This document shows positions 10,286 to 39,400 of a stretch of DNA of 64,000 bases, one piece after another. Position numbers and translations under genes: made by a program. The notes under the pieces are model-generated. The model did no database searches. It saw only the letters and a list, made by a program, of their open reading frames with translations, and had not been told where the DNA came from. Within the stretch, counting starts at the first letter, position 1; each line of letters begins with the position of its first letter. The stretch covers positions 160,227 to 224,226 of the forward strand of contig JBQTIY010000001.1 of the NCBI GenBank assembly GCA_052387675.1, given 5' to 3'. Source of the DNA: Planctomycetota bacterium. Its GTDB lineage: Bacteria > Planctomycetota > B15-G4.

Positions 10286-11208
<923 letters not shown>

Positions 11209-11506: not shown

Positions 11507-11598
11507 CGTAGCGGTGCCAGAGGGCCCGGTACACAGTTGCGCCCCCGCTGAAGGCCGCGCCACAGGGCCGGCTCAGATCGCGGTACAGTCTCCCGGGC

Positions 11599-22022: not shown

Positions 22023-23105
22023 TCACTCCGCCTTGGACGACGCGACGTCGTCGGACACTGAATCATTCCCGCCGGGCTGGGCGGCCGGCGCCGCGACAGC
22101 AGGCGCCGCCACGACCGGACTCGGCGCCACAGGCGGCGCGATGAGGTTGCCCTGATCGTCACGCGCGCTGTGCGGCATCTGGGTCACGCCTTCAATCTTG
22201 ATGTCCCAGCCGGTGAGCCGCGTGGCGAGGCGCACGTTCTGCCCCTTGCGGCCGATGGCCAGCGCGAGCTGGTCGTCGGGGACCACAACGCGCGCGATCT
22301 TGGTGGCTGGATCGAGCGAGAGCGAGGCGAGCTGCGCGGGGCGCAGCGCGTTCGCGATGAGGTCTTCGTGCGACTCGCTCCAGCGGATGATGTCGATCTT
22401 CTCGCCGTTGAGTTCGTCGGTGATGGCCTTGATGCGCGTGCCGCGGATGCCCACGCAGGCGCCCACGCAGTCCACGCGGGCGTCATTGCTGTGCACGGCA
22501 ATCTTGGTGCGGTAGCCCGGCTCGCGGGCAATGCGGCGGATTTCGATGACGCCGTCGGCCACTTCCGGCACTTCCAGCTCGAACAGGCTGCGCACCAGGT
22601 CGGGCGTGACGCGCGAGAGCAGGATGCGCACGCGCGGCCCGATGGCCTTGACCTCGGTGATGATCCCGCGGATGCGGTCGCCCGGCGAATACATCTCGCC
22701 GCGCACGCGTTCGCTGCGCGGGATGAGCGCCTCGGCCTTGCCCACATTGACTACCAGGGAGCCGCCCTCGATGCGCTGGACGGTGCCCAGCACGAGCTGC
22801 CCGAGGCGATGCTCGAACTCCTGGTAGACGGCGGCGTTTTCGGCCTCCCGCAGGCTCTGGATGATGACCTGCTTGGCGGCCTGGGCGGCGATGCGCCCCA
22901 GGTCGATGGCGCCGGTGTCGGCCTCGGCCGTGACCGACATTTCGCCAGTCTGGCGGTCCAGGGTGCAGTGGATCGGCACGCCCTCGCCCACCTTCTTCTG
23001 GATCGCCGCCACCATGGCGGTTTCGATCGTGCGGAAGATCAGCTCGGTGTCGATGTCCTTTTCGAGGTGAATCGACTCGATGATCCGCAGCAGTTCGCTG
23101 TTCAT
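22023..23105 (-). CDS. nusA: Transcription termination/antitermination factor NusA
   Basis: [19 protein letters not shown]... with S1 and KH domains. ATG at 23105 is preceded by a GAGAGGAG Shine-Dalgarno; the ORF-track TTG start at 23126 is an extension. Confidence 0.95.
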
Positions 23106-23189
23106 GGTCGGTCTCCTCTCAGGCAAGGGTTTTCAGGCAGGGTCGTCGGAATGCAACGCTCCCGCGCCAGCCGGCCTGAAAACGAAAAC

Positions 23190-23209
23190 AAGTGGGCCGA
23201 GACCCACTT
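23190..23209 (-). promoter_or_regulatory. Intrinsic-terminator-like hairpin plus U-run in the nusA 5' leader (candidate attenuator)
   Basis: The minus-strand RNA reads AAGUGGGUCUCGGCCCACUU (7-bp stem) followed by GUUUUCGUUUUC, about 85 nt upstream of the nusA ATG. There is no upstream same-strand gene for it to terminate, because the neighbouring gene is divergent. Confidence 0.35.
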
Positions 23210-23285
23210 GCACTCACTCACAGGACGGGTACGCGGGAGCCCGGTATTAGGCGCTTTACGCGGCGGGCCTGTCAAGGTGGCCGCC

Positions 23286-23315
23286 TTGACGCTTTGTGCA
23301 CTGCGCACCTAGAAT
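23286..23315 (+). promoter_or_regulatory. Sigma70-like promoter (TTGACG - 18 nt - TAGAAT) for the HPS-RraA/thiS operon
   Basis: -35 TTGACG at 23286-23291, -10 TAGAAT at 23310-23315. A GAAA-tetraloop hairpin (CGCGGC-GAAA-GCCGCG, about 23336-23351) sits in the predicted leader before the ATG at 23376. Confidence 0.4.
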
Positions 23316-23375
23316 TCGCGGTCCGTTTTCCCGCTCGCGGCGAAAGCCGCGGGTTCCTCTGCGCGAGGCGCCGCC

Positions 23376-24821
23376 ATGCCTGTCCCCACTGTCGGCGCTG
23401 GATCGACACCCAAGCCCGGCAACTCGGGCGCAGCCTCCCCCGGCCACGCAGCCGCGCCCGCAGCCGGTCCCGCGGCAGGCGGTCGCCCGCGGCTGCAAGT
23501 CGCGCTCGACTTTCTCATTCTCAGCCGCGCACTGAAGGCGGCCGAGGAGGCCGTGGCCGGCGGCGCCGACATCCTGGAAGTCGGCACCCCGCTGCTGAAG
23601 AGCGCCGGCCTCGACGCGGTGCGCGCGCTGCGCGAACGCTTCCCCAACATCCCCGTGGTGGCCGACACCAAGACCATGGATGCGGGCCGCGCCGAGATGG
23701 AGATGGCCGCCAAAGCCGGCGCTAGCTTCGCGACGGTGCTGGGCGTTTCTTCGCCCGGCACGATCCGCGAGTGCGTCGAGGTGGGCAAAAACTACGGCAT
23801 CACCGTGGTCGTGGACCTGGTCGGCACGGCCGATCCGGTGGCCACGGCCCGCTTGGCCGCTGAACTGGGCGCCGGAGCGGTGGGCGTGCACTGCGGCATC
23901 GACCAGCAGATGGCGGGGCAGGATCCCTGGACCACCCTGCGCGCTGTGCGCGAGGCGGTCTCGATCACGGTGGCGGTGGCCGGCGGCATCACGGCCGAGT
24001 CGGCCGGCCGCGCGGTGGCCGCCGGCGCCGACATCGTCATCGTGGGCGGCGCCATCACCAAGGCGGCCGATGCCGCGGCAGCCACGCGGGCCATTCGGGC
24101 AGCGCTTGAAGGCGGACGCGGCGCGGCGGGCGCGGCCTCAGCCGGCGCGGGCGGCGCCCCAGGCGCGGCGGGCGCCGCTGGCGCGGGCGCCTTTCGTCGC
24201 TACGGCCCGGCGCAGCTCCGCGAAGCCTTCGCGCAGGTCTCCACCTCCAATCTCTCCGACGCCATGCATCGCGGCGGCGCACTCGAAGGCCTGCAGTCCC
24301 TCGTGCTCGGCAAGCACATGGTCGGGCGCGTGCTCACCGTGCGCACTTACCCCGGCGATTGGGCCAAGCCGGTGGAGGCCATTGATCAGGCGCAGCCGGG
24401 CGATGTGCTGGTCATCGACGCGGGCGGCCGCGGCCCGGCCGTCTGGGGTGAACTTGCCACCGAGAGCTGCCTGCAGCGCAAGCTTGCGGGCGTGGTCATC
24501 GACGGCGCCATCCGCGATGTGGATGCCATCCGCGCGCTCGGCTTCCCCGCCTTCGCGCGGCTGGCCTGTCCCAATGCCTGGGAGCCCAAGGGCTTTGGCG
24601 AAATCGGCGCGCCGGTGACGGTGGGCGGCGTGCGCGTCGCGACCGGCGACTGGATCGTGGGCGACGACAGCGGCCTCGTGCACGTGCCCGCCGAGCGCGC
24701 CGTGGAGATCGCCAACCGCGCTCTCGACGTGCTGGAGATGGAGAATCGCGTGCGCGGCGAGATTCGCGCCGGCCGCACGCTGGCCTCGATCATGGAGCTG
24801 TACCGGTGGGAGAAGTCCTGA
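23376..24821 (+). CDS. Bifunctional fusion: 3-hexulose-6-phosphate synthase (HxlA/KGPDC, OMP-decarboxylase fold) + RraA-like (class II aldolase/decarboxylase, RraA/MenG family) domain
   Basis: N-domain LQVALDFL..ADILEVGTPLLK..VVADTKTMDAG..VLGVSSPGTIRECVEVGKNYGITVVVDLVG..VIVGGAITKAADAAAATRAI is nearly colinear with B. subtilis HxlA. After a G/A-rich linker, the C-domain AMHRGGALEGL..QPGDVLVIDAGG..AVWGELATESCLQRKLAGVVIDGAIRDVDAIRALGFPAFAR is an RraA-like fold. The N-terminal 40 aa are P/A-rich, so the true start may be later. Confidence 0.8.
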   Translation: MPVPTVGAGSTPKPGNSGAASPGHAAAPAAGPAAGGRPRLQVALDFLILSRALKAAEEAVAGGADILEVGTPLLKSAGLDAVRALRERFPNIPVVADTKTMDAGRAEMEMAAKAGASFATVLGVSSPGTIRECVEVGKNYGITVVVDLVGTADPVATARLAAELGAGAVGVHCGIDQQMAGQDPWTTLRAVREAVSITVAVAGGITAESAGRAVAAGADIVIVGGAITKAADAAAATRAIRAALEGGRGAAGAASAGAGGAPGAAGAAGAGAFRRYGPAQLREAFAQVSTSNLSDAMHRGGALEGLQSLVLGKHMVGRVLTVRTYPGDWAKPVEAIDQAQPGDVLVIDAGGRGPAVWGELATESCLQRKLAGVVIDGAIRDVDAIRALGFPAFARLACPNAWEPKGFGEIGAPVTVGGVRVATGDWIVGDDSGLVHVPAERAVEIANRALDVLEMENRVRGEIRAGRTLASIMELYRWEKS

Positions 24822-25072
24822 GCGGCCAGCCGGTGCGCGCTGACGGCTCACGCGAGGGCGCGACCACGCTGCTCCGCGTCACGCTGAACGGCGAGCCGCG
24901 CGAGCTGCCCGCCGGCACGACCGTGGCCGAGTTACTCGCCCTGCTCGGCGCCACGGGCAAGCCCTGCGCCGTGGAAATCGACCGCGTCATCGTGCCGCGC
25001 AGCGCGCACGCCACGCGCTCCATCACCGCGGGCAACGCCATCGAAGTCGTGAGCTTCGTCGGCGGTGGCTGA
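24806..25072 (+). CDS. thiS: Sulfur carrier protein ThiS
   Basis: The C-terminal 66 aa LRVTLNGEPRELPAGTTVAELLALLG...AIEVVSFVGGG have the ubiquitin-like ThiS length and the terminal GG. The annotated ATG gives an N-terminal extension; the true start may be a non-ATG codon further in. Confidence 0.8.
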   Translation: MGEVLSGQPVRADGSREGATTLLRVTLNGEPRELPAGTTVAELLALLGATGKPCAVEIDRVIVPRSAHATRSITAGNAIEVVSFVGGG

Positions 25073-25129
25073 CTAGACGAGCGCCAAGAAGGATTCACGC
25101 GGTCGCCCGCTTAACCCTTGAGCGTCGGC

Positions 25130-25717
25130 TTAGGCCTTGCGCGTCGCTTGCCGCCAGCGTTCGAGCAGCGGCAACTCCACAGCCTCCGCGAACTCCCGCA
25201 GTGTTCGCTCGATGAAGGCGAGGTCCAGCTTTGGCTGTCGAGCCACCACCGAGCGCACGTCTTCGAGGTCGCGCTCTCGTCCGGCGATGACCTTGTGGAT
25301 CACCAGATCCTCCGGCGAAACGAAGCGCACGGCCACGGCCCCCATGTGCACGGTCCGCGCCCGCCGCAGAGCCTGCTGCTCGTAGTCCGAGTCGGAGAAG
25401 ACGAGGTCCACGCGCATGCCGCTCGCGGCGTCCGAGCAAGGCAGGACCATGGTCTCGCGCGCAAAGGTTTGGGGATCGACAAGCGCTTGCAGCCCCGCGG
25501 CCTGGGCTGCTGCAACGACCTCGGCCAAACGGTCGAGCGATGCGCCGAGCGTGATGTCGATGTCCCTCGTCAGGCGTGGCTCGCCGTGCACGAGTACAGC
25601 CTGCCCGCCGATCACCATGTAGGGCACGCGCGCCGCGTCCAGCGCGCTGGCGATCCGGCCCAGGATCTCAGAGATCACGGAAGACTCGCGCCCGCCGAAT
25701 GTCCTCCTCGATGCCAT
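25130..25717 (-). CDS. Short AbiEii-like nucleotidyltransferase-fold protein (paralog of 14732-15358)
   Basis: 195 aa. MVIGGQAVLVHGEPRLTRDIDITL (GGxAL + RxTxDIDI) and C-terminal IHKVIAGRERDLEDV (K..A..R.RD..D, AbiEii motif III-like). An alternative GTG start at 25678 lies just after the upstream small gene's stop. Confidence 0.65.
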   Translation of the reverse strand: MASRRTFGGRESSVISEILGRIASALDAARVPYMVIGGQAVLVHGEPRLTRDIDITLGASLDRLAEVVAAAQAAGLQALVDPQTFARETMVLPCSDAASGMRVDLVFSDSDYEQQALRRARTVHMGAVAVRFVSPEDLVIHKVIAGRERDLEDVRSVVARQPKLDLAFIERTLREFAEAVELPLLERWRQATRKA

Positions 25718-25862
25718 CGAGCGGATCCTTCAGTGGGATGACGCCGAGTTGCCGGGCCTCCTCGAGCAGCAGTTCGTGGATGCGGAAGTTCTCTTCGACA
25801 TCCAGGGGCCGCGCGAGTTGGTCACGCTCGAAGTCGTCGAGGAGCTTGCAGCGGCGAATCAT
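25668..25862 (-). CDS. Small alpha-helical protein (64 aa), putative partner of the downstream NTase
   Basis: MIRRCKLLDDFERDQLARPLDVEENFRIHELLLEEARQLG...; it overlaps or abuts the NTase start (GTGATCTCTGA arrangement). Weakly similar to the protein at 14512-14742. Confidence 0.45.
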   Translation of the reverse strand: MIRRCKLLDDFERDQLARPLDVEENFRIHELLLEEARQLGVIPLKDPLDGIEEDIRRARVFRDL

Positions 25863-25871
25863 GGCCCCATC

Positions 25872-26417
25872 TTAGAGCATCGACTCCACAACGTTGCGCG
25901 CCCACTCCGGCAATTCGCGGTAGCGCTCGAGCGGCTCGCTCCGCTTGCTGTAGTAGCGCGCCATGCCGCCTTGGTAGAGCACGGCCACGGCCAGAACCGT
26001 GGCGTAGAAGACATTGGTCATGGACTCCACCATCGCCGCCACATCGAGACCGCCGGCGGCGCCGCCGACAGCCTTCTGCAGTTCGGCTCCGCTGGGACGT
26101 AGCAGCGTGAGCTGCAACAGGGCATAGGCCGCCAACGCACCCAGGAGCGCGAGTTCGCCGTGCGCCAGAGCCTGCGGCGCCAGCGGGTCGGCGTGCAGGA
26201 GGCGCACTCCCCAGCGCCGCTCGCGCAGCCCCACCACCAGCACGACAGTGCCCAAGGCCAGCCCGACGAACTGGCCTACGGAGAAGAACTCCGAGGTCAG
26301 CAAGGCGAAGAGCAGCGTCAGCGCGCCGAAGGCGGCCAGCGAGCCGCCGTTGCTGCGCGCGAGCGCCGCGGCGCGGACCAGCGGACGATGCAGCTCCGCC
26401 GCGTGCGCGAGCAGCAC
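25872..26417 (-). CDS. Integral membrane protein (about 181 aa, 4 TM), divergent from thiG
   Basis: This is the C-terminal part of the 483-aa ORF-track ORF; the remainder of that ORF is antisense to thiG. Hydrophobic helices LAAFGALTLLFALL, VGLALGTVVLVVGL, LALLGALAAYALLQLTLL, VFYATVLAVAVLY. The start is placed at an in-frame GTG (26417) because there is no ATG. Confidence 0.45.
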   Translation of the reverse strand: MLLAHAAELHRPLVRAAALARSNGGSLAAFGALTLLFALLTSEFFSVGQFVGLALGTVVLVVGLRERRWGVRLLHADPLAPQALAHGELALLGALAAYALLQLTLLRPSGAELQKAVGGAAGGLDVAAMVESMTNVFYATVLAVAVLYQGGMARYYSKRSEPLERYRELPEWARNVVESML

Positions 26418-26495
26418 GCGATCCTTTTCGCTCAGCGGGTCGGCCGACGTCGTGATGCAGGCAGAGAGTAGCGGTCGGAGGCTAGAATCGCCGCC

Positions 26496-27281
26496 ATGAT
26501 TCCCGGCGACTCTCCGCTCGTCATCGGCGCGCACAGCTTCCGGTCGCGGCTCTTCGTGGGCACCGGCAAGTACCGCAGCTTGGAGCAGATGCGGGCCGCC
26601 GTGGACGCCTCCGGCACCGAATGCGTCACCGTGGCGGTGCGCCGGATCGGCACGCCCGGCAGTGAATCGCTCTTGGAACACCTGGATCTGACGCGCATCA
26701 CACTGCTGCCCAACACCGCCGGCTGCTACAGCGCCGACGATGCGCTGCGCACGGCGCGCCTCGCGCGCGAAGCCCTCGGCTCCGACTTGGTGAAGCTCGA
26801 AGTTCTGGCCGATCCGCAGACGCTCTTGCCTGAACCCATCGAGACGCTCGCCGCGGCGAAGCAGCTCGTGCGCGAGGGCTTCACCGTGCTGGCCTACACC
26901 ACCGACGACCCGATCATCGCGCGGCGCCTCGAAGAGGCCGGCTGCGCGGCCGTCATGCCGCTCGGCGCCCCCATCGGCAGCGGCCTGGGGATCCTCAATC
27001 CGCGCAACATCGCGGCGATCAAGGCCGCGGCCCGCGTGCCGATCATCGTCGACGCGGGCGTGGGCACGGCCAGCGATGTCTCGGTGGCCTTCGAACTGGG
27101 CGTGGACGGCGTGCTGCTCAACACCGGCATTGCGCTGGCCGACGACCCGGTGCTCATGGCGCGCGCGATGCAGCATGCCTGGCTGGCCGGACGCGCGGCG
27201 TGGCTGGCCGGCCGCATGCCGCGTCGCGCGCAGGCCGCGCCGAGTTCGCCCACGCAGGGCACGATTGCGGCGAGTGCGTGA
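26496..27281 (+). CDS. thiG: Thiazole synthase
   Basis: [26 protein letters not shown]...VKLEVLAD...[27 protein letters not shown], a full-length ThiG TIM-barrel match. Confidence 0.95.
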
Positions 27282-28333
27282 CGGCGCTGAAGCGGGAGAC
27301 TCTGGCCGGCAACACGGCCGCACGTTCGCTCGGTAAGCTGAGTTTCACCGCGCTCGAAACACTCTGCCGCGAATCAGCGGCGGCCTTTCTGCCCGATGCG
27401 GAGTCGGCCTGCGATCCGCGCGGACCGCTGCCGATCGCTTACTCGGAGAACCGGCGCAAGCGCCTGGGGATTCCGGGCTGCGTGGTGTGCGAGAGCCGCA
27501 CCTGCGCGGCCGTGGACTGGCATGCGCTGCCCGGCGAGGATCTCGCCTGGCTCACGCCGAATCTCTACCCCATCGTCGCGCCGCGTGTGGGCAGCGACGC
27601 GATGGGCGCCTCGGCCAGCGCAAGTGGCGGCGCGCACGGCGTGCATGGCATTCATTTGGTGCATTGGAGTTCCCTGCGGCACGACGGCGGCCTCATCGGC
27701 GCCGAGCCAGCCACGGCCGCGGCCCTCTTCGCGCAGCTTGCGCGCGCCGGCGAGTGGCTGCTGCACCACGCCGACGCCCAGTACCCCGAGAGCGGCGAGG
27801 GCCATCGCGGGCACGTCGGCCTGGTGAAAAACCGCGGCCGCACCGTGGGTGGTTCCGTGGAACACGATCACCAGCAGCTCATGCTTTCGAGCGTGCCCTT
27901 CGCCGAGCCGGCCGCCACACGCGACCTGGCCGCGGCGCTGCACGCGGCACCCGCCGCGCTGCGCGTGGACGACATCAACGGCCTGGCCACTACGCTTGTG
28001 CCGCCCTTCATGCGCCGCCCGCTGCACGCCTTCATCGTGCCGCGCCGATCGGTCACGCCGGCCGGCTGGCTGCACCATCTCGATGAGAAGGTGCGCGATG
28101 CCGTGGCCTTCGCCGTGGCGCGGCTCTGCCAAGCCACCTCCACGCTCATGGCGAACGAGGGCCGCGAGCCCGCCTGGAATCTCATCTGTCACGAAGGCCT
28201 CGGCTGCGAGCCGATCTTCGAGATGCGTCCTTTCACGCAGCCGCTCGGCGGCTACGAACATCTCGGGCTCTATCTCTGCGAGGAGCGGCCGGCCACGAGC
28301 GCCGCGCGCCTGCGCGCGGCGCTGCCCCGCTAA
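27278..28333 (+). CDS. GalT-like HIT-superfamily nucleotidyltransferase (HxHxQ motif), translationally coupled to thiG
   Basis: The GTG start overlaps the thiG TGA (GTGA at 27278-27281). EHDHQQL is an H-x-H-x-Q catalytic motif, and the upstream cysteine clusters (CGEC...CVVCESRTC) resemble the GalT zinc site. The ORF-track ATG at 27200 would overlap thiG by 80 nt. Confidence 0.65.
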
Positions 28334-28805: not shown

Positions 28806-29936
28806 TCAGCGCTGGAAGATCGGAAGATAACCGACCGGCACCTGCAGAGTCAGCGAGACGATGGCCGTCGCGTAGACATTGCCGTAGTCGCCATTCCTGA
28901 ACTGCCCTTCAGGCTGCTGGCGCTCGGCGCTGTCGCGCACAAACTCCGGCCACCAGCGGTCGAAGGCGCGCTGGTCGGCGTGCTGCCAATAGGCCTGCGC
29001 GGCGTAAAGCGCGCCGTACTCCTGGAACATCTCGAAGCGGCCTTCGCCCAGGATCGGGTCGCTGCGCTGCAGCGCGTCGAAGCCCTGCTGCAGGCGCTCG
29101 CTGGAGTAGTCGCCCAGCGCGTTGAGCGTGGCCAGCGCGGCGGCCGTGAGCGCCCAGCTCGTCTTGGGATCGTTGAGCGCGTAGCGAAAGCGTCCGTCCA
29201 CCGGATTCTGCGAGGCCTTGAGATAGTCCTCGGCGCGGCGAATGACTTGGCGCTTCACGGCGAAACCCGCATCGCGTGCCGCGCGCAAGGCCTGCACCAT
29301 GCACACCGTGATCGAACCCTCGTGGTTGGTCGTGGCGCGCGGCTCGTAGTACCAGCCGCCCTGCTGGCCTTGGCTTGACTCGATCAAGTTCACGCCGCGC
29401 TGCACGGCGGCGCGCAGACGCTCCTCGCGCAGCGGATCCTGCCCCGACATGCCGCAGGCCTGCGTCAGCGCCAGCAGCGCGTAGCCCTGGCCGTGCATCT
29501 TGGAGACCGAGTCGGCATCGGTGGTGATGTAGCCGTCTTCGCCGCAGCGATCCACGAGCCAGTCGACCGCGCGGCGCACGGGCACGCCGTGGCGGCCGCG
29601 GTCGGGCAGATGCCCGGCGGCCATGAGCGACAGGGCCGCCAGAGCCGTCACGGCCACCGGCGCGGAGTGGCTGGCCTCGCTGCGCTCGATGGAAAAACTG
29701 CCGTCTTTGTTCTGGCGCGCGACGAGCCAGACGTGCGCGCGCTCGACCATGGCCTGCACGCGCACCGTCTGCAAGCGATCGTCCTGGCGCTGCGCGTGGC
29801 TGCTGCCCGAAGTCGTCGGCAGCGCCACCGCAGGGCCGGCCGACGTGGCCGCGAGCAGCGCCCCCGACAGCAGGCAGGCCGCGGCGATCACGGCCGGTCG
29901 TTCCGGTTGAGCGCGCGGATGTAGGCGTCCATCCAC
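28806..29936 (-). CDS. Secreted prenyltransferase/squalene-oxidase repeat (PSOR, alpha/alpha-toroid, QW-motif) protein
   Basis: Signal-peptide-like N-terminus. Repeated Q-x-x-x-G-x-W/F motifs (QNKDGSF, QGQQGGWYY, QQPEGQF). The C-terminus ...LTLQVPVGYLPIFQR is shared with the paralog at 35258-36454. Confidence 0.8.
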   Translation of the reverse strand: MDGRLHPRAQPERPAVIAAACLLSGALLAATSAGPAVALPTTSGSSHAQRQDDRLQTVRVQAMVERAHVWLVARQNKDGSFSIERSEASHSAPVAVTALAALSLMAAGHLPDRGRHGVPVRRAVDWLVDRCGEDGYITTDADSVSKMHGQGYALLALTQACGMSGQDPLREERLRAAVQRGVNLIESSQGQQGGWYYEPRATTNHEGSITVCMVQALRAARDAGFAVKRQVIRRAEDYLKASQNPVDGRFRYALNDPKTSWALTAAALATLNALGDYSSERLQQGFDALQRSDPILGEGRFEMFQEYGALYAAQAYWQHADQRAFDRWWPEFVRDSAERQQPEGQFRNGDYGNVYATAIVSLTLQVPVGYLPIFQR

Positions 29937-30607
29937 GTGCGGTAGCGCTCGGGCACGTCGTCCACGTGCAGATTCATCAGGCGCTCCTGCAGCTTGGGCG
30001 GCAGCACACCCCAGCGCGCGTCGGTGTCCTGACGCAGAAAGGGGTTGGTTGCGTCGGGCGGGAGGCCGCGGCCCTCGCGCTGATCGGCCGCCTCGGCATT
30101 GCTCTCTCCGTCGCGCGGCTGCTTGCCGTCGGCGCCTGCAGGCTGCTCCTCGGCACCATCCTGCGGACGCGGAGTGCCCGAGGGCTGCTGCTCGCCGCCT
30201 TGCGGCTGCGGCGCCCGATCGCCATCACGCTCGCGCGGCGCGCCCGAACTCGGCTGGCCCTGACCCTGCGCGCCCGAACTCGGGTCGCCCTCGCCGCCGC
30301 CGCCGCTGCTGGGCGAAGAGCTGCGCATGTACTTGACCTGCTTGATGAGTTCTTCGAGGTCGCGGATGGCGGCGCGATGACCATCGCGGGCCGCTTCGAT
30401 GCGACCGGCGGGCGTTTCGGCTTCGGCCGCTTCCTGCAAGGCGAGATCGACCGCCTCGAGCTGCGTGCGCACGCGCTTGGCCAGTTCCTCGGCCGGCGAA
30501 ACCTGCAGGGCGCTGGCCGCCGGCGCGCAGAGGAGGAGCGCACAGACTGCGCCACCAGCCCAACGCAGCGCGGTTCCTCGAGCCGGCGCCCTCGGTGCTG
30601 TCGTCAT
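29888..30607 (-). CDS. Secreted low-complexity (G/S/Q/P/E-rich) protein with a conserved C-terminal domain
   Basis: Signal peptide AVCALLLCAPAASALQ, a disordered middle, and the C-terminal ...RWGVLPPKLQERLMNLHVDDVPERYRTWMDAYIRALNR. 4-nt overlap with the upstream gene. Confidence 0.55.
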   Translation of the reverse strand: MTTAPRAPARGTALRWAGGAVCALLLCAPAASALQVSPAEELAKRVRTQLEAVDLALQEAAEAETPAGRIEAARDGHRAAIRDLEELIKQVKYMRSSSPSSGGGGEGDPSSGAQGQGQPSSGAPRERDGDRAPQPQGGEQQPSGTPRPQDGAEEQPAGADGKQPRDGESNAEAADQREGRGLPPDATNPFLRQDTDARWGVLPPKLQERLMNLHVDDVPERYRTWMDAYIRALNRNDRP

Positions 30608-33030
30608 GGTTGCTGTCCCTCCGCCTGCTGCATCATCTTGCTGAACATCTCGCTGACCTGACGGTGCTCGCCGGCCCAGCGATCAAGGAGCTCGCGCTCA
30701 AACTCGGCGAGATCGCCGTCCTCGCCCAAGGACGGATTGAGCCGCACGAAGTTGTCCAGGCGCGCGAGCGCGGCCAACTCCATGCGCTGAATGAGCAGAA
30801 GTTCCGCGACGGTCGGCACGAGCTGGGGCTTGGGCTGGCCTTCCGGCGACTCACTGCCCGCCGGCTGCTCCTCCATGGGCGCACCGCGGCGGCGCTCCTG
30901 CTCCTGCCGCAGCACGGCCAAGAGGTCGGCGAGTCCGCGACGGGCGTCCTCCTGGAGCGACTGCGTGAAGGGGCCGAGCTCCTCGCCGGCGAGCAGGTCG
31001 GCGGCATCGGCCAAGTCATCGCGGCTGCGACTGAGCGCAAAGGTGAAGGCCACGGCACCGTCTTCCTCGAGCTTGACGCGCAGTCCCTCAGACAGCGTGG
31101 AGAGGTCGCGCTCCTCGTCGGCCAGCTTGGCCACCGTGCGGCGCTGCCCGCGCGAGAGGCGCTGCTCTTCGTCGAGACTGGCGTGAAGTTCGCGCGTCTC
31201 CAGACAGGCCGCTTCGTGGCGCGTGAGCAGTGCGGAGAGTTCCTCGCCGAGCCGGAAGAGCGTTTCCTCCTGGCGGAGTTGCTCGTAGCGCTGACTCGTG
31301 CCGGCCAGCGTGTCGCGGGCCGCTTCGAGTTCCTCGGCGGCCTCTTCCTCGCTCTGCGCGGCCTCTTCGCTCTGGCCCTGACGCAGCGCGCCTGAAGCGC
31401 CGCCCATCGCTTGGCCGGCGCGCTGACCGCCCTCGCGGAAACTCTGGTCGGGCAGCTCGGCGAGCCGCTCCATCAGTTCGTGCAAGCGCTTTTGAAGCTC
31501 GTCCTGGCGCTCGGCCAGCGCCGCTGTTTGGGCTGCATCGGGCGGCGGGCGATCCGCCTCGCCCTGCGCTGCGCGAGCGCGCAGCATGGCCAGCAGTTCG
31601 TCGATGGAACGCTCGGCGGCCTGCGCAGCCGCCTGTCCGGGCTGCGCCTGGCCCTGCTCGGCTGCCTTCGCCAGCCGGGCGAGTTCCTCGAGTAGCTGAC
31701 GCGTGCGGTCCAGCAGCTCGGGACCGGCGGCGGGCTCGACGGCCTCAAGGCGCTGCGCCAACTCCTCGAGCTTGGCCGCATCCTGGGCGGCATCTTGCGA
31801 GGCGGTTTGCGCCAGCGCGCGAGCGCGGTTGCGCTGGGCATTGCTGCTGCGCTCGGCGCGGTCGAGCGCGGCCGCAGCCTCGCTCAGCTCTTCAGCGGCG
31901 GCCTCCATCTCAGTGCGCGCGGCTTCCAGCGCCTTCGCGGCTGCGGCCTCGGCCGGCGACTCGGCGCCGCTCTCGCCGCCCGCCTCGTTGCCACTCTCGT
32001 CACCGGGCGGTTCGGGGCCCTCGCCGCCGGCGGACTCCGCGGCTGCGGCCGCGGCTGCTTCGGCCGCTTCAAGTTGGCTGCGCGCGGCTGTCATCTTCTC
32101 GGCGGCAGCCGCAGCACGGGCCTCGGCCTCGGCGCGCGCCTGAGCGACGGCCTTCGAGAGTTCATCGGCTTCGGCTGCGCTGGCAGCCGGATCTCCGTTC
32201 GCGGGGTCGGTGCTCGCCGGGTCGGTGCCAGCTTTCGGCGCGGAGGCTGCGCTCGTCGCGGCCATGCGCTCGCGCAACATGGCCAGGGCCTCCTGCAGCA
32301 GAGCTTGCGTCGCGGCCGTGGGCTCTGCTTCCTCAGCGAGCTGGGCCTGCGCCTCGGCGAGGGACTCGGCCAACTCGGCCTCGCCCAGCTCCTGCTCCGC
32401 TCCCTGCAACTCGCCCAAGGCCGTGGCCGCCTGGCTCAGCGCGCGCTGCAGCGCCTCCGCCGAATTGAGCGCCTGCTCCACGAGTTCGCCGGGGCGATCG
32501 CTCGTGGCCCGCGTCTCGGCCAAAAGCCGGCGCTGATTCTCCGCGAGGTGCGAGAGTTCCGAGACGCCCTGGCGCGCCAAGTCGGCCTGGCGCTTGAGTT
32601 CATCGACTTCGCGGCGGTCGCGCAGCAGCGCGTACAGCTCCTGCAGCGAGTCGACGAGCTGGCCCTGCTGCTCAACGCTCGAGAGGCTGCTGCGTTCGAG
32701 GTTGCGCTCGAGCTCCCCGGCGAGGCTGAGCAGGCCGCGTTCATCGAAGCTGGCCAGGGCTTCGCGCAGCAGCGTGGCGTTGCGCGAGCGGCCTTCGTCC
32801 TCGTAGCGCTGCGCCAGGCGCTCCATCTTCTCGCGCAGCGTGCCGAGCCGCAGACCGATGCGCGACTGGTCGCGCTGCACACGCTGCAGTTCCGTCTCGG
32901 CGGCGCCGCCGTCATCTTGCCAGGGCGCCGCCCAGCCTGGCCCCGCGAGGAGGCTGCCGGCGCAAAGCAGCGCCGACAGCAGCCGAGCGCCGCCGCGCAG
33001 AAAGGGCCGGATCGTGGCTGAGCAGGCCAT
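30604..33030 (-). CDS. Secreted 808-aa coiled-coil protein (A/E/L/Q/R-rich)
   Basis: Signal peptide LLSALLCAGSLLAGPGWAAP followed by about 750 aa of heptad-like, low-complexity coiled coil. The start shares position 33030 with the stop of the upstream gene. Confidence 0.65.
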   Translation of the reverse strand: MACSATIRPFLRGGARLLSALLCAGSLLAGPGWAAPWQDDGGAAETELQRVQRDQSRIGLRLGTLREKMERLAQRYEDEGRSRNATLLREALASFDERGLLSLAGELERNLERSSLSSVEQQGQLVDSLQELYALLRDRREVDELKRQADLARQGVSELSHLAENQRRLLAETRATSDRPGELVEQALNSAEALQRALSQAATALGELQGAEQELGEAELAESLAEAQAQLAEEAEPTAATQALLQEALAMLRERMAATSAASAPKAGTDPASTDPANGDPAASAAEADELSKAVAQARAEAEARAAAAAEKMTAARSQLEAAEAAAAAAAESAGGEGPEPPGDESGNEAGGESGAESPAEAAAAKALEAARTEMEAAAEELSEAAAALDRAERSSNAQRNRARALAQTASQDAAQDAAKLEELAQRLEAVEPAAGPELLDRTRQLLEELARLAKAAEQGQAQPGQAAAQAAERSIDELLAMLRARAAQGEADRPPPDAAQTAALAERQDELQKRLHELMERLAELPDQSFREGGQRAGQAMGGASGALRQGQSEEAAQSEEEAAEELEAARDTLAGTSQRYEQLRQEETLFRLGEELSALLTRHEAACLETRELHASLDEEQRLSRGQRRTVAKLADEERDLSTLSEGLRVKLEEDGAVAFTFALSRSRDDLADAADLLAGEELGPFTQSLQEDARRGLADLLAVLRQEQERRRGAPMEEQPAGSESPEGQPKPQLVPTVAELLLIQRMELAALARLDNFVRLNPSLGEDGDLAEFERELLDRWAGEHRQVSEMFSKMMQQAEGQQP

Positions 33031-35261
33031 CAGTTCGGCCCTCGCGCGCCGGTGAGTGCGGCCTGCGTGCGTTCACGCAGCGCCTGTTGCTCATCGATGA
33101 GGGTCTTCACCACGAGCAGCACCTCCTGATAGTCCTCCCACTCCTCCATGCGACCGAGCAGGCTTTCCAGTCCGGCCAGGACGGCGAGCTGCGCCTCCTG
33201 CGCCGCGGCGAGCGTCTCGCTGCTGGGCTCGGTGAGAGCCGACTCCAAGAACTTGTGCGCGGCGGGCGAAAGATCCTGTTCGAGCATGAGCGCCACGCCG
33301 ACCATGTCGAGCAGGCGCCCCACGAGATCGAGCCGGCCGAAGGCGCCCGCAGTGTGCTCAGCGGCGAGCGTGCGCCAGGCCTGCGGTGCGAAGCCCTCGT
33401 CCACCGGCGCGGCCTGCCAGTCGGCCAAGCGGCGAGCCAGCACGCTGGCGGCGCCCGGCGCCGCGTCGAGGCGATTGAGCAGAAGTTCATCGAGCACGGA
33501 GCAGAGTTCGCGGGCCTCACGCGTGAGCCGCGCCGTGACCTGCTGCTGCGCGACAACCGCGCCGAGCAGCTCAGGATCATCGGCCGGCGGCGGCACGGCC
33601 ACCAGTTCGGCGACAGACTCGGCGGCCGTGCGCTGGCGCTCACGGATCGCCGCGAAAGCTTCTTTGACGCGCAACTGGCGGTCGGCCAGCAGCCGCTGCA
33701 CTTCGGCGTCATCCACGACTTCCAGGCGGCGGCCGTCGGCCGTGGCAAGCTGCGGTCCGCGCCCCGGCAGGTCGCGGCCATCCTGCGCCTCGAGCCGGTA
33801 GCTCAGCGCGCCGGACTGGCTCTGCGTGGACAGGTCCAGCAGATGCCGGCGCTGTGCCGGACGCGTTTCGTCCGCCACGAGGTCGAGCACGGTCTCGGTT
33901 GGCGCTGTCGCCACCGCGCCGCCGGAGGAGAGCTGCTGCGTGTGCAGGCGCACCGAGGCGATGCCGTGGTCGTCCTCGGCCAGCGCGGCAAAGGGCACGA
34001 CCGCGCGCGCGGTGACCTTCAGGTCCGAACGCGCCGGCGCAAAGACGCGCAAGGTCGGCGCGCGATCCTTGCGCACCATGAGCGGCAAGTGATCGGGATC
34101 GGGCGTCTCCAGACCCGCCTCGCCCACGAGCACCACCACCAGCGTGTCGGAAGCCTCGGCCACGAACTCCACGGTGGCCAGGCGCCCGCCATCACCTTCC
34201 GTCATGCGCAGCGGCAGTTCCTGGCCGGAGCTGAGCAGGCGCAGCAAGCCCGAGTGCACGCTGTCCGGCACCTCGCCGCTGAGCCGCAGGCGCGTGCCTT
34301 CATCCAGCATGAGGTCGGCGGCGGTGAGTTCGCGCGGCGCTTGGCCCAGATAGGCGGGCGGCTCGGCGAAGAAGCGCGGCTGCAAGAGCCGCGGCGGCTC
34401 GACGACCTGCAGCCTCAGCTCGGTGTCGGCGCCCGTGTCGTCGCCGCCGCGCACCCAAAGCACCGTGTCGCCGCGCTCGATCGGCAACCGGCCGCGCCAG
34501 GTGCCGTCGGCAGCCACGCTCAGCATGGCGGAGCGTTCGCCCTGCGCCCCGTCGACCACCACTTCTACGCGGTTCGGCGTGCGGCCTTCCACGCGTGCGC
34601 CCACTTCGAGCAGTCCGCCGCGCGCCACGAGCACGTCGCCGTCCTCCAGCACGCGGTGGCTGGGCCCGGCCGGCTCGAGTTCCAGAAAGAGACGCGTGTC
34701 GCGCGGCCAGGCCACGTCCTGCAGCGCCCAGCGCCGCGCAAAGACATCCAGCGGCGGGCGCGTGAGCCCCACGAGCGCGGCGATCAGCAGCAGCACGCCG
34801 CAGGAGAGCGCGCTGGTGCGCAGCGCCGGGCGCGAACGCAGCACTTGGCGCAAATCGTGTGTGCGGCAAAGTTCGGCGGCCTCGCCGTGCAAGCGCGAGG
34901 CGAGCGTGCCCTCCGCCCCGCTCTCCACTTGCAGTGCACTGATAATGCGCCCCTCGGCCTGCGGCAGCGCGCGCTCGACGAGCCGCGCCGTGTCGAGCCG
35001 GTCGGGGCCGCGCAAGAGCGGCCGACCCAAATGCCGCCACAGTTCACGCAGCAGCAGCAGCGCCACCAGCACCAGCAGCGCACCGCGCACGGGCACCGGC
35101 AGATTCAGCCAGCGATCGGCCAGGTAGAGCGTGGCCAATGTGGCCGCTAGGCGCGCGGCCACACGACACAGTCCGGCCGTGCTGCGCAGGAGCCGGATGC
35201 GCCCGCGCACCTGATCCAGGCGGCGCGTCAGCAGAGTGTGGCTCGGGGCGTTGGTGTTCAT
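33030..35261 (-). CDS. Large membrane-anchored hypothetical protein (743 aa, N-terminal TM hairpin, large extracytoplasmic domain)
   Basis: TM segments LAATLATLYLADRWL and ALLVLVALLLLRELW near the N-terminus and one more around residue 150. 4-nt overlap with the upstream PSOR gene stop. Confidence 0.6.
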   Translation of the reverse strand: MNTNAPSHTLLTRRLDQVRGRIRLLRSTAGLCRVAARLAATLATLYLADRWLNLPVPVRGALLVLVALLLLRELWRHLGRPLLRGPDRLDTARLVERALPQAEGRIISALQVESGAEGTLASRLHGEAAELCRTHDLRQVLRSRPALRTSALSCGVLLLIAALVGLTRPPLDVFARRWALQDVAWPRDTRLFLELEPAGPSHRVLEDGDVLVARGGLLEVGARVEGRTPNRVEVVVDGAQGERSAMLSVAADGTWRGRLPIERGDTVLWVRGGDDTGADTELRLQVVEPPRLLQPRFFAEPPAYLGQAPRELTAADLMLDEGTRLRLSGEVPDSVHSGLLRLLSSGQELPLRMTEGDGGRLATVEFVAEASDTLVVVLVGEAGLETPDPDHLPLMVRKDRAPTLRVFAPARSDLKVTARAVVPFAALAEDDHGIASVRLHTQQLSSGGAVATAPTETVLDLVADETRPAQRRHLLDLSTQSQSGALSYRLEAQDGRDLPGRGPQLATADGRRLEVVDDAEVQRLLADRQLRVKEAFAAIRERQRTAAESVAELVAVPPPADDPELLGAVVAQQQVTARLTREARELCSVLDELLLNRLDAAPGAASVLARRLADWQAAPVDEGFAPQAWRTLAAEHTAGAFGRLDLVGRLLDMVGVALMLEQDLSPAAHKFLESALTEPSSETLAAAQEAQLAVLAGLESLLGRMEEWEDYQEVLLVVKTLIDEQQALRERTQAALTGARGPN

Positions 35262-36454
35262 CGTTGGAAGATCGGCAGGTAGCCGTAGGGCAGCGAGAGA
35301 ATGATCGCCCCCACCGCGGTGGAGAAGGCCGGGCCCGGCCCCACCGGGCAGGGCAGGCTGCCGTCGGCGCGCTGCGCAGCGATGAGCTCACCCCGCACGC
35401 GCGGGTAATAGCTGCGCCAAGCCTGGCCGCCCACGACGTAGAGCGCCTGCGTGGCGTAGTAGTGGCCGTACCAGTAGAAGTAATGGAAGCCGTAGGGCGA
35501 ACGCGCCGAGACGAGGTCGTAGTTATCGATCAGAAAGCTGATGCTGGCCTGCAGGTCCAGCGTCTTCTCGCCCCCGCCCGGATCATTGCCGTAGACACCG
35601 GAGTTGTGCAGGGCCGCGATGCCCGCGGCCGTGAGCGCAAAGGAGGAACGCGAGCGCCCCTGGCTCACCTGATAGCGGAAGGAGCCGCGATCGGAGCGGT
35701 AGTAGCTGTCCCAGGAGCGTCCGCCGCCTTCGTTGTCGCTCACGTAGGAGCGCGCCACGTACTTGCGCGCCCGCTCGATCGTGCTCTTGGGCACGCGGAT
35801 GCCCACGTTGCGCGCGCCGCGCAGCGCGTTGAGCTGGCACACCGCGATGGACATGTCCGACTCGACGGCGTGCGGAACATAGCGCCACGCGCCCTCGGCG
35901 TTCTGCGCGGCCACGATGAGGTCCACCGCCGACTGCAGCTTGGCGCGCACATCCTGCCGGTCGGTCATGCCGTAGACCTCGGCCAGGAAGAGCGTGGCGA
36001 AGGCGTGGCTGTACATGCGCGTCTCGTTGCGCGTGATGAAGCCGTCGTCCTGCACGCAGGCCAGCACCGCGTCGGTGGCGCGCCGGATGACGTCGCCGTA
36101 GATGCCGCGTCCGGGTAAGTGCCCGGCCGACAGGAAGGCGATGCCGGCCAGCGCCGTGACGCCCACATGCGGCCGGTCATCGACGGTGACCTGATAACTC
36201 TGGTTGAGCTTGAAGCCCACGTCGGCGGTCCAGGTGCCGTCGGCGTTCTGCGTCTCGGCCAGATAGGCCAGCGCGCGTTCCACGGCCAGGATGGAGGCGG
36301 GCGTGATGTCTTCGTCCTGCGCCGGCATGGGCGCCGGCATGGGCGCCGACGGGGGCGCCGACGGGACCGCGGTCGCCGGCGCCTGCGCCGCGACAGCGCC
36401 GACCAGCAGCGTGACGCTGAGGGTCGCGCGCAACACAGCCGCGGGCAGGTTCAT
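35258..36454 (-). CDS. Secreted PSOR (prenyltransferase/squalene-oxidase repeat) protein, paralog of 28806-29936
   Basis: Start chosen at MNLPAAVLRATLSVTLLVGAVAAQAP (signal peptide); the ORF-track upstream extension is antisense junk. QW motifs QNADGTW, QNAEGAW, QRADGSLP. C-terminus ...LSLPYGYLPIFQR. The ATG overlaps the TGA of the upstream giant gene (36451-36454). Confidence 0.85.
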   Translation of the reverse strand: MNLPAAVLRATLSVTLLVGAVAAQAPATAVPSAPPSAPMPAPMPAQDEDITPASILAVERALAYLAETQNADGTWTADVGFKLNQSYQVTVDDRPHVGVTALAGIAFLSAGHLPGRGIYGDVIRRATDAVLACVQDDGFITRNETRMYSHAFATLFLAEVYGMTDRQDVRAKLQSAVDLIVAAQNAEGAWRYVPHAVESDMSIAVCQLNALRGARNVGIRVPKSTIERARKYVARSYVSDNEGGGRSWDSYYRSDRGSFRYQVSQGRSRSSFALTAAGIAALHNSGVYGNDPGGGEKTLDLQASISFLIDNYDLVSARSPYGFHYFYWYGHYYATQALYVVGGQAWRSYYPRVRGELIAAQRADGSLPCPVGPGPAFSTAVGAIILSLPYGYLPIFQR

Positions 36455-39400
36455 CGCGACGCACTCCGCAGCACGCGCACGACTCCGCCATTCGCGATGA
36501 GCACAGCGCCTTCGGTCACGGTCATCTCCGCGCGACCGGGGGCCGCGAAATCTGTCCACGCAATACTGTAGCGCTGCTCCCCGGTCCTGCCATCGACGAG
36601 TCGCAGCGTGGCCGGCACATCGCGCGTCAGCGGGTCGATGAGCAGCGCGAAGCCATCCCGGGCCGGCGCGATGCGCGGCGCGACCGCCGGAGCTTCGGGC
36701 AGGCGCAGGCTGCCCGAGGGCCGCCCGGCCGCCACATCCACCACGAGCAGGCGCGCCGGGTCGGCGGCCTCGCTCAGTGCGAGGAAGGCCACCGGTCCGG
36801 CGGACTGACCGCCGAGCACGCGCAGCGGGACTTCCGAAGTGAAGGCCTCGCCGGGGCCAAGTTCTCCCGCCAGGCTCAGCACCTGCGAGAGCCCGCTGCG
36901 GCCGTTGAGCGACGACGGCGTGCCCACCAGCACAACCCCGCCGAGGCCGTCGCCGAAGAGCAGGCCGCGCGCGAGCGAGTCGTGCACTTGCGCCTGCCAG
37001 AGCGGCTCGAAGTCCTCCGCGCGGCGCAGTTCGAGGCGCGAGCCGAAGGGCGGCTCGATCGCACCGGCCAGCAGCAGTCCGGCCGGTTCGTCCAGCGCGG
37101 AGAGCAGCGTGGGCGCCTGCCCGCCGAGAGCCACTTCGGCCGCGATGCGGCCCTTGAGCAGATCCACGCGCAGCAGGCGCGCGTCCACCGGCGTGCCGTC
37201 GCGCTGGCGATCGCGAATGCTCATGACGAGCACGCGGCCGTCGGCCAGCACCAGCCGCGCGCCGAGGCAGGGCGGCAGTTCGACGCTGCCGACGAGCGCT
37301 CCCGTCGCCGCACCGAAGCCCTCCACGATGAGGCGGCGCTGCCCCGACTCCACAACTTCCGCGAGACGCACCACGAGCCCGTCGCACAGCCCCCAGCCGC
37401 GCGAGAGACCGGAGACCGGCTGCGCCCACAGCCGTCGCCCGTCGCTCAGCGCGAGCGCCTCGAGCTGGTCTTCGCCGGTGGCGCCGCCCGCGCCGCGCCC
37501 GCGCGAGAGCTGCGCGAAGAGCCGTTCGCCGCCGAACTGCCACTCGGTGAGATCGGCCGGCCCGCTGCGACCCTCGCTGGGCCAGGCGCGCCGCCAGAGC
37601 ACGCGGTCCTGCGCCGCATCGATCAAGAAGAGCAGGCTGGAATCGCGCACCAGACCCAAGGCCACTGAGGCCAGACTCGCGCCCGGCCGGCCGGTCACGG
37701 CGGGCCACTCGATCTGCCCCTGCGACACGATGTCGTGCCGGCTCTGCTGCACGTCGGCGCTCGGGAGCGCGGGCAAGCGCGGCTGCCGCACACCGCGCGG
37801 AATCTCGGCCGCGCCGAGCTGCAGCGCCGCGGCCAGCTCCGCTTCACCCGCCGCCGCAGCGGCCTGACGCTGCAAGTCCTCGCGCAGATCCGGGTCGATG
37901 CGCCCGGCCAGTGCAGACAAGGCGGCCAGGGCTTCCGTGCCGCTGCCGGCGGCCAGCAACTCGCGCACGCGCTCCGCATGCGCCTCCACCACGGCCAGCG
38001 CCTGCGGATAGCGCGCTTCGACGGCGCGGACATCGCGCTCATCGACTGCCACGGCCAGCAGCGCCTCGGCTTCGCGCTCGAAGCGCGCGTAGTGCCCCCG
38101 CCCGTAGCGCCCCAGCAACTCACCCAGCACGGTGGTGGCGCGCACGCGCACGCTCTGCCCGGCCCAGCTCTCATCGGGCCAGCGCAGCAGCAGCTCCTGC
38201 ACCAGCGCCACGGCTGCGCCGGCTTCTTCGTCGAGCATGGCCTGCTCGGCCGAGCGCTGCGCCGCGAGCAGGCCCGCCGGCTGCGGTCCATCGCGCGTCA
38301 GGCCATCAATGGCCAGGCGCAGCTCGGGGTCGCGCTCAGCAATGCGTTCGATCCACTCCGCCACGAGCTCCTGCTCGCCGAGATTCGCCAGCGCAGACAG
38401 CGCCTCCGAAGCCAGTTCGTTCAGGCCGGCGAGACGTTCGGCGAGCTCTAGCAGCGCCTCCCAGGACTCGCGCTGCTCGTCGGCGCGCGCGCGGATGAGT
38501 TCGACCTGCAAGCGGCCCGTGCGAGCGCGCTCGAAGAGCGGGCCCGGCCCGCCCTGCAAGAGTTCGTCGTAGAAGCGCGCCGCTTCGCTGAGCCGCCCGG
38601 CCGCGAGCAGCAGTTCCGCCGAGGCGAAGCTGGCGTCGAGCGCCTCGTCGCCGCCGGCCTGCACTTCGTCCAGCGCGCGCTCGACATCCACCACGCCGTG
38701 CACGGCGCGGTCATCCACCAGCAGCAGAGCCGTACCGGCCGGCACGGCGCGGCGGGCACCGTTGGGCAGTCCGGCGGGATCCCAGGGCCGGTCCCGCAGC
38801 GGAGCCGCGCGATCCTCGAGCGGCACGGTGCGGAGTCCGCGCAGCGTGGGCACGAGCAGGACCTTGCCCGCCAGGCTGGCCGGCCCGGCCACGACATCGC
38901 GCTCCAGTTCCAGGTGCCGCTCCCAGAGCAGCGCTCCCGAATCCGCGGAGCGCACTTCAACTCGCTCGCCGCTCACCAGAATCAGGCGGCCCTCGGCATC
39001 GAGCAGGGCGTCGTGTCGCAGGTCGGGACGCCCAAACTCGGCGACGCCCAGCGTGTACTTGAGGCGGCCCGTCGCGGCATCGAGGGCCAGCAGTTGCGCG
39101 CTGTCGAGCGGCGTGACGATGAGCGTGCCGCGCACGAGGAGCGGTGGATGATTGGTCCACGGCACCGCGCGGCGCACGTCGGAGTTCGGAGAGCGGCTCG
39201 CTCGGCGCGGCATAGGCTCGTAGCCGGTGATCCAGCGCAGCCGCCCGGAGCGCGCATCGACGCAGGCCACCGAGCCCAAGTTGCTACTCACGTAGGCGGC
39301 GCCCTCGGCCAGCAGCGCGGGCGAGGCCGTGTGCTCCTGAAAAGGCCGGTTGAACATGGTCAAGTCCTGCTGGCCGGTGCACAGCAGCGTGCGCCAGAGC

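Follow-up and report, generated by a model that had tools for sequence, protein, structure and literature searches.

The 64-kb stretch of DNA analyzed here, referred to throughout as the window (contig JBQTIY010000001.1 of a Planctomycetota bacterium, positions 160,227 to 224,226), carries the genes for the sulfur carrier ThiS and the thiazole synthase ThiG, together with an open reading frame (ORF) that begins on the stop codon of thiG. This ORF, labeled X, occupies positions 27278-28333 of the plus strand and encodes 351 amino acids. An earlier note on the same DNA had described it as a GalT-like ORF starting at that point, and this was confirmed both by the sequence and by the N-termini of homologs. 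Thus, thiG ends in ...GCG AGT GCG TGA, with its stop codon at 27279-27281, while X is read from a GTG at 27278 to a stop codon at 28331-28333, and the two genes share the tetranucleotide GTGA (27278-27281, plus strand), an arrangement indicative of translational coupling. The sole alternative in-frame start for X lies at 27200, and the N-termini of homologous proteins align with the start at 27278. That X is a coding sequence was recognized from its GC content at the third and second codon positions (GC3, 0.85; GC2, 0.54; the window as a whole has 69% GC) and from the 71 clusters of homologous proteins that it retrieved, the best with an E-value of 1e-141.

The product of thiG (26496-27281, plus strand) is a canonical thiazole synthase. 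It matched the Pfam ThiG model (PF05690) with 345.7 bits over profile positions 2-247 of 247, and the context of the Schiff-base lysine, LVKLEVLAD, is conserved. Against solved structures it scored 307 bits with ThiG of Pseudomonas aeruginosa (1wv2) versus 142.6 bits with the thiosugar synthase BexX (4n6e), and with ThiG thus canonical, a BexX-type thiosugar pathway was rejected. Upstream, thiS (24806-25072, plus strand) encodes a sulfur carrier ending in ...FVGGG that matched both Pfam ThiS and TIGR01683 (65.5 bits against a cut-off of 37.45). The conserved core of ThiS begins near position 24872 and its true start codon is uncertain; the FVGGG C-terminus is present in 20 of 20 aligned orthologs.

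The earlier note had treated these genes as a thi locus, and while the coupling of thiG with X is real, the locus comprises only thiS and thiG, with a 1.4-kb insertion between them. The insertion (25130-26480, minus strand) holds three genes: a DUF6036/DUF2204/AbiEii-like nucleotidyltransferase (25130-25717, minus strand; a weak PADLOC match to AbiEii), a 64-amino acid ORF that overlaps it and may be an antitoxin (25668-25862, minus strand), and a membrane protein of about 200 amino acids (25872-26480, minus strand). As the three genes lie on the opposite strand, thiG and X form a two-gene unit in the window. The insertion is absent from two related loci (L001 and L002), where thiS adjoins thiG. 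Gaps of similar size occur at the same junction in two others (L012 and L022), which lack a homolog of the inserted nucleotidyltransferase; the thiS/thiG junction looks like a recurrent site of insertion. A thiamine pyrophosphate (TPP) riboswitch was found neither in the whole window at gathering score nor in positions 22900-26600 at E<=10, and by that route the operon could not be tied to thiamine regulation.

The absence of thiF, thiO and thiH from the window, also claimed earlier, was upheld. Pfam annotation of the other ORFs in the window identified no further thi gene, and scans for the motifs of the E1 enzymes ThiF and MoeB (D.D.V..SNL.RQ, and the looser G.GG.G ... SNL.RQ) gave zero matches when the window and 121 related loci (approximately 1 Mb) were read in all six frames, which is local evidence only. 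The lack of thiF from 64 kb says little, because a related lineage (L055, discussed below) has thiS-thiG with neither thiF nor X nearby.

Fold and family of X

No Pfam or NCBIfam model matched X, even at E<=10, and it therefore falls short of the gathering thresholds of the two GalT models, GalP_UDP_transf and GalP_UDP_tr_C (PF01087/PF02744). When X was searched as a single sequence against the sequences of the PDB, the best matches, to GalT-like proteins, reached only E ~0.4. An AlphaFold2 model built with 34 homologs was of high predicted quality (mean predicted local distance difference test score, pLDDT, 92.9; predicted template-modeling score, pTM, 0.92) and displayed two tandem HIT-like alpha/beta lobes arranged as the GalT half-barrel. 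The top 19 Foldseek matches of this model in the PDB consisted solely of the Arabidopsis ADP-glucose phosphorylase At5g18200 and GalT from Pyrobaculum, human, and Escherichia coli, with E-values of 4e-14 to 5e-11, a probability of 1.00, template-modeling (TM) scores of up to 0.66-0.75, and about 17% identity; the leading entries, at E ~1e-13, included 2h39, 1z84, 6k5z, 5in3, and 1hxp. A profile of the X family recovered the same enzymes from the PDB sequences (At5g18200, 3.6e-11; Pyrobaculum GalT 6k5z, 1e-9; E. coli GalT, 3e-7) and aligned with these solved enzymes an RAKRP-type motif (S56, R59, and R62 of X), a CxxC, a KNxG...SxxHxHxQ, and a GG[YF]E.

Each of the elements expected of a GalT-type active site has a counterpart in X. 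The sequence that the earlier note had singled out, EHDHQQ, corresponds to residues 195-200 (27860-27877). Within it, H196-D-H198-Q-Q200 (27863-27877, plus strand) is the equivalent of the GalT HPHGQ, its counterparts being SHSHSQ in At5g18200, THPHSQ in 6k5z, and NPHPHGQ in E. coli GalT. Nucleotidylation is predicted to take place on H198, as the nucleophile, and H196 would be a ligand of the zinc; H196, H198, Q199, and Q200 are all invariant in an alignment of 35 sequences. Invariant in the same 35 sequences are C68 and C71 of the zinc CxxC (27479-27490) and H126, and together with H196 these residues make up a predicted metal site. They correspond to C52, C55, H115, and H164, the zinc ligands of E. 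coli GalT. The segment C68-V-V-C71 with C76 (27479-27505, plus strand) aligns with CPFC of At5g18200 and 6k5z; at least 90% of the sequences have C76, which is confined to the thiG-linked clade and replaced by Thr in the remote clade described below. Toward the N-terminus, S56-E-N-R59-R-K-R62 (consensus SEARAxR) is conserved and aligns with the phosphate-binding motif of At5g18200; its S56, R59, and R62 do not vary among the 35 sequences. Near the C-terminus, Q321-P-L-G-G-Y-E327 (28238-28258, plus strand) is the equivalent of the hexose-contacting (V)GYE or GGFE of GalT and aligns with GVGGFE of At5g18200; Q321, G324, G325, and E327 are invariant in the thiG-linked and remote clades alike.

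Of the characterized enzymes, At5g18200 (1z84, 2h39) was the best match to X both in structure (Foldseek E=3.9e-14) and by profile (E=3.6e-11 over residues 44-338), and the two have in common the two-lobed HIT half-barrel and the RAKRP, CxxC, KNxG..SxSHxHxQ, and GGFE motifs. X differs from it in the low identity (about 17%), in the lack of a Pfam GalP_UDP_transf match, in having thiG as its operon partner, in some 40 additional helical residues at the N-terminus, a conserved feature of the X family, and in a variable Ala/Gly-rich loop (residues 103-123) of low pLDDT. GalT itself (E. coli 1hxp/1hxq/1gup, human 5in3, Pyrobaculum 6k5z; Foldseek E-values 2e-13 to 5e-11) resembles X in fold, in the correspondence of HxHxQ with HPHGQ, in the zinc CxxC, in the GYE motif, and in N153, G159, and S161, which are N185, G191, and S193 of X. 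By analogy, a ping-pong mechanism through a histidyl-nucleoside monophosphate (His-NMP) would be expected for X. Unlike GalT, X only partly keeps the second-metal (Fe) site, with E315 at the position of E. coli His298 as judged by eye from the motifs, and has no gal genes nearby. More distant are Apa2, the diadenosine tetraphosphate (Ap4A) phosphorylase, and DUF4931 (4i5w and 4qvu; Foldseek E=1.9e-4 and 1.2e-5), which belong to the same HIT branch but have TM scores of 0.41-0.44 and another organization of the N-terminal domain. Apa2-type enzymes transfer AMP to phosphate-type acceptors.

With ThiF and MoeB, X has in common solely the net reaction that has been proposed for it, the placing of AMP onto the C-terminus of ThiS, and its place in an operon with thiS and thiG. 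Its fold is HIT/GalT rather than the Rossmann-like E1 fold, it contains neither the GxGxxG nor the DxDxV..SNLxRQ motif, and E1 enzymes adenylylate directly, with no covalent enzyme-AMP intermediate. Any ThiS-activating role of X is, consequently, a matter of analogy and not of membership in the E1 family. As judged from sequence and predicted structure, X belongs, divergent yet complete and presumably catalytically competent, in branch III (the GalT branch) of the HIT superfamily, and is a putative nucleotidyl transferase/phosphorylase lying beyond the curated family models; the GalT-type identity proposed earlier from the HxHxQ motif and Cys clusters was borne out, though as a remote one.

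Conservation of the thiG-X pairing and the remote relatives

The earlier note had proposed looking for the thiG-X pairing in other genomes, and the pairing was found to recur. Relatives of X with at least 44% identity all come from uncultivated Planctomycetota, and thiG/thiS are present in 35 of the 35 loci whose upstream DNA could be used; the seven loci without them have no more than 130 nucleotides of upstream sequence. Among 12 species-level genomes compared at the thiG/X junction, a four-nucleotide overlap of the thiG stop and X start (ATGA, GTGA, or TTGA) is present in nine, and the genes lie 5-8 nucleotides apart in two. An opposite-strand gene intervenes in L015, its product being desaturase-like on the strength of His-box motifs read from the translation alone. 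The earliest-branching genome (L007/L023) has the order thiS-X-thiG, with the thiS stop codon overlapping the start of X. A second lineage, represented by P0073, has thiS-thiG-X with a TGATG overlap (L122), although the proteins are by now distant from those of the window (X, 34% identity; NusA, 59%; ThiG, 63%). In two loci of this lineage, molybdenum cofactor genes for a MOSC protein, MoeA, and a MoaC-MoaB fusion follow immediately after X, in the opposite orientation (L125, 11695-14289; L126, 2932-5526), such that pathways of the ThiS-type and MoaD-type sulfur carriers adjoin.

In a neighbor-joining tree, the thiG-linked close relatives of X formed one clade, and the association of thiG with X would appear from the sequences to have arisen once, or perhaps twice. 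The surroundings are likewise conserved: the order rbfA-infB-nusA, thiS-thiG-X (preceded in some by a fusion of hexulose-6-phosphate synthase with RraA, HPS-RraA), and then prenyltransferase-like, DUF4175, and further genes is syntenic across the clade as a block of about 20 kb, and it is recognizable in the P0073 lineage too. Since the whole block is syntenic, the adjacency of thiG and X has mostly been inherited. In a third lineage, similarly distant (L055), nusA is followed by HPS-RraA, a HEAT protein, a methyltransferase, thiS-thiG, and an Rce1-like gene, with neither X nor thiF at the locus; thiS-thiG with no local thiF is accordingly the ancestral arrangement here and needs no special explanation. 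With one clade, a syntenic block, and a relative that lacks X, the conserved pairing proves less than first appears.

The family as a whole is rare, with 92 of 1.84 billion cluster representatives (clustered at 50% identity) matching at E<=1e-30; at E<=1e-3 the number rises to 856, presumably including ordinary GalTs. Its remote members, from Anaerolineae (including Pelolinea submarina), Brocadiales (including a Brocadiaceae metagenome-assembled genome, MAG), a Verrucomicrobia MAG, Competibacteraceae, and others, are of the same length and architecture as X and score 17.1-22.6 bits with the Pfam GalT model, below or at the border of its cut-off of 22.1. None of the 44 loci encoding a relative at 25-35% identity, with at least 1.5 kb on each side, contains thiS or thiG. 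A GT4 glycosyltransferase, most like MshA and the sucrose-phosphate synthases, adjoins the X relative in 15 loci of the remote clade instead, usually upstream and commonly with a start/stop overlap, as in Anaerolineae, the Brocadiaceae MAG, the Verrucomicrobia MAG, and others, and at least two cluster representatives (P0107 and P0114) are GT4-X fusion proteins. A GH32-like beta-fructosidase gene is near the relative in eight loci and directly downstream in six. The trio of GT4 (sucrose-phosphate synthase/MshA-like), GalT-like, and GH32-like genes is conserved in loci L029-L046 (for example, L046 of P. submarina, 8595-12112), and with the fusions it suggests an uncharacterized module for a sucrose- or fructoside-linked phosphorylase or transferase acting on NDP-glucose (NDP, nucleoside diphosphate). 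In Brocadiales, the X relative is located between hemC and aroA/ribD; such placement among housekeeping genes indicates that mixed operons are usual for the family. A Pfam search of the N-terminal extensions of two further members (P0125 and P0133) was empty, and hence detected no ThiS or ThiF domain in them. The thiG-linked and remote clades have 48 conserved positions in common, including those of the RAKRP, CxxC, and KNxG...SxxHxHxQ motifs and of the hexose-binding GG[YF]E.

Likely role of X

Given the fold, the motifs, the coupling to thiG, and the genomic contexts of the relatives, X more probably than otherwise transfers nucleotidyl groups by a ping-pong mechanism through His-NMP, as a transferase or a phosphorylase, and still handles a small substrate of the NDP-sugar type; the class of substrate and the lack of a role directed at ThiS are what we infer. 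An NDP-sugar-type substrate is the most economical assignment because the 48 common positions, hexose motif included, are those of relatives linked to glycosyltransferases. His198 would attack the alpha-phosphate of a small NDP donor, for which an NDP-hexose (ADP- or UDP-glucose, for example) is the most probable candidate, to form a covalent His198-NMP intermediate positioned by Gln200, and the NMP would then be handed to a phosphate-type acceptor, either inorganic phosphate (as a phosphorylase) or a sugar 1-phosphate (as a transferase), with a structural zinc held by Cys68, Cys71, His126, and His196. X probably joined the thiS-thiG operon once, in an ancestor of this group of uncultivated Planctomycetota and has been coupled to thiG, or in one branch to thiS, ever since, while keeping the small-molecule chemistry of its relatives and not acting on the ThiS protein. 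There is no demonstrated need for a substitute for ThiF: ThiG and ThiS are canonical, and L055 keeps thiS-thiG without X or a local thiF.

Several observations weigh against this interpretation. The thiG/X junction is far more stable than the thiS/thiG junction and that between X and its downstream genes, both of which have repeatedly taken insertions; thiG/thiS have been kept in all of the 35 usable loci at 44% identity or above, and both pairing and overlap persist where X has diverged to 34%. Moreover, X remained within the operon through the rearrangement to thiS-X-thiG. The stability of the junction suggests selection for co-expression with thiazole synthesis, and the co-translation of X with thiG is left unexplained by a substrate of the NDP-sugar type. 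In addition, at 17 positions the residue conserved in the thiG-linked clade differs from that of the remote clade, among them D197 (Gly in the remote clade, giving HGHQQ for HDHQQ, with 16 further differences), R317 (Leu), and C76 (Thr), and such substitutions would allow for a changed acceptor.

The alternative raised by the earlier note was that X replaces ThiF. To our knowledge, activation by an E1-like adenylyltransferase is the rule for every thiocarboxylate sulfur carrier (ThiS, MoaD, CysO, Urm1, and others). On the alternative reading, ThiF would be dispensable or absent in these Planctomycetota. His198 of X would take up AMP from ATP, ADP, or an NDP-sugar, and the carboxylate of the C-terminal Gly of ThiS would attack this His-AMP to yield ThiS-CO-AMP, which a sulfur donor would then convert to the thiocarboxylate used by ThiG. 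The adenylylation of ThiS is the sole nucleotide-dependent step in bacterial thiazole synthesis, and the translational coupling of X, with thiG in the majority of lineages and with thiS in L007, would fit such a role. The persistence of the pairing down to 34% identity and the lack of an E1 motif in the window and the 121 loci point in the same direction, and as HIT enzymes of the Hint branch cleave acyl-adenylates through His-AMP, the reverse reaction is conceivable by analogy. Nevertheless, we consider it unlikely that X activates the ThiS carboxylate in this way. We know of no GalT-branch enzyme with a carboxylate or a protein as acceptor, and the hexose motif and conserved positions of X are common to relatives tied to glycosyltransferases. 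The L055 lineage, with thiS-thiG and neither X nor a local thiF, implies that an unlinked E1 is normal in the group, and the P0073 lineage, with MoaC/MoaB, MoeA, and MOSC encoded beside X, should own an E1 for the activation of MoaD that could also serve ThiS. Finally, the association has a single origin, or perhaps two, within a deeply syntenic block. No paper was found linking ThiS or ThiG to a GalT/HIT protein or to an HPS-RraA fusion. The notion of ThiS activation by X is thus unsupported rather than refuted, and the comparative data lean against it. Were it true, X would provide the first non-E1 route to the acyl-adenylate of a ubiquitin-like sulfur carrier, a second and mechanistically distinct solution to activation with bearing on the evolution of ubiquitin-like activation, and for the first time an enzyme of the GalT branch would be seen to use a protein or carboxylate as acceptor.

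Other links to thiazole or thiamine have lower probability. A further role in thiazole synthesis requiring 1:1 co-production with ThiG or ThiS, for example as a physical partner of ThiG, in the phosphorolysis of ThiS-acyl-AMP to ADP so as to edit or recycle it, or in the mobilization of sulfur, would account for the overlap, in two deep lineages, of the start of X with the stop codon of thiG or thiS and for a thiG/X junction more stable than its neighbors; as there is neither precedent nor specific evidence for such a role, and the fully conserved catalytic site argues against a purely structural one, we hold it to be quite unlikely. It is very unlikely that X acts on a nucleotide of the thiamine pathway instead of ThiS, whether by interconverting adenosine thiamine triphosphate (AThTP) and inorganic phosphate with ADP and thiamine diphosphate (ThDP), or by nucleotidyl transfer onto or off thiazole phosphate (of the ADP-thiazole type). 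These are formally transfers to a phosphate acceptor of the GalT/Ap4A phosphorylase type, X lies in an operon with thiG, and the thiG-linked clade has a specific Arg317 and further changes of charge near the acceptor motif. Furthermore, the ThDP adenylyl transferase of E. coli, which uses ADP, was still molecularly uncharacterized by 2021, its activity having always been lost on purification (PMC8615392; PMC1976097). The case is nonetheless one of context, and the context is that of thiS/thiG rather than of thiE, thiL, or other late genes, the operon has no TPP riboswitch, and X is absent from the E. coli-like organisms in which AThTP was described. An adenylylated thiazole intermediate would also be without precedent, as we know of none in ThiG-type pathways.

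Independent of its function, X defines a rare GalT-like subfamily with no curated Pfam or NCBIfam model, whose branches include one held fast within the operon of thiazole synthase and one fused to sucrose-phosphate synthase-like glycosyltransferases. Both are inexpensive targets for enzyme assays, and their characterization would improve the annotation of Planctomycetota, Anaerolineae, and Brocadiales genomes.

Neighboring genes and other features of the window

Immediately upstream of thiS, the HPS-RraA fusion gene (23376-24821, plus strand) encodes hexulose-6-phosphate synthase and RraA-like aldolase domains and matched NCBIfam PRK07028 with 540.8 bits, just under the cut-off of 593. A single new pathway comprising HPS-RraA, ThiS, ThiG, and X, with the fusion supplying glyoxylate/dehydroglycine or an alternative sugar, was considered and rejected because HPS-RraA is separated from thiS in relatives (genes for a HEAT-repeat protein and a methyltransferase lie between them in the outgroups L055 and L057), is not encoded at this locus by L007, L015, or the P0073 lineage, and is very widespread (7859 matches at E<=1e-20). 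It was concluded that HPS-RraA adjoins thiS solely through the loss of intervening genes, and it was judged to be outside the thiamine system. On another Planctomycetota contig (L056), its neighbors on either side encode a 6-pyruvoyl-tetrahydropterin synthase and a pterin-binding protein, a setting that hints at a link to formaldehyde or pterin metabolism.

Downstream of X, the conserved block at 28806-47713 (minus strand) is syntenic with X throughout the clade. It encodes two prenyltransferase/squalene-cyclase-like repeat proteins ending in GYLPIFQR, a DUF4175-like coiled-coil protein of 808 amino acids, a protein of 743 amino acids, a PQQ/beta-propeller protein of 1474 amino acids, VWA and BatA-domain proteins, and a MoxR AAA+ ATPase, and was likened to the Bat/MoxR clusters of the "aerotolerance" type.

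The first part of the window (1-6400) has a GC content of 55-64%, compared to approximately 70%, and lies beside a tRNA gene (6395-6465, minus strand). It contains a type IV Mrr restriction endonuclease (793-1740; PADLOC mREase_IV, 300 bits), the S component of an ECF transporter (2490-2963), an ABC-type ATPase (2960-5266), and a PD-T7-4 defense protein with DUF4145 (5263-5934; 273 bits), and it looks like a defense or genomic island integrated at the tRNA gene. Toward the other end, a B12-binding radical SAM protein is encoded at 58360-60069 (plus strand) by a gene with unusually low GC content at the first and second codon positions (0.59 and 0.39) but a GC3 of 0.90. The protein is not ThiH-like by Pfam, and its gene adjoins that of a fused DHquinase/shikimate dehydrogenase (56727-58367).

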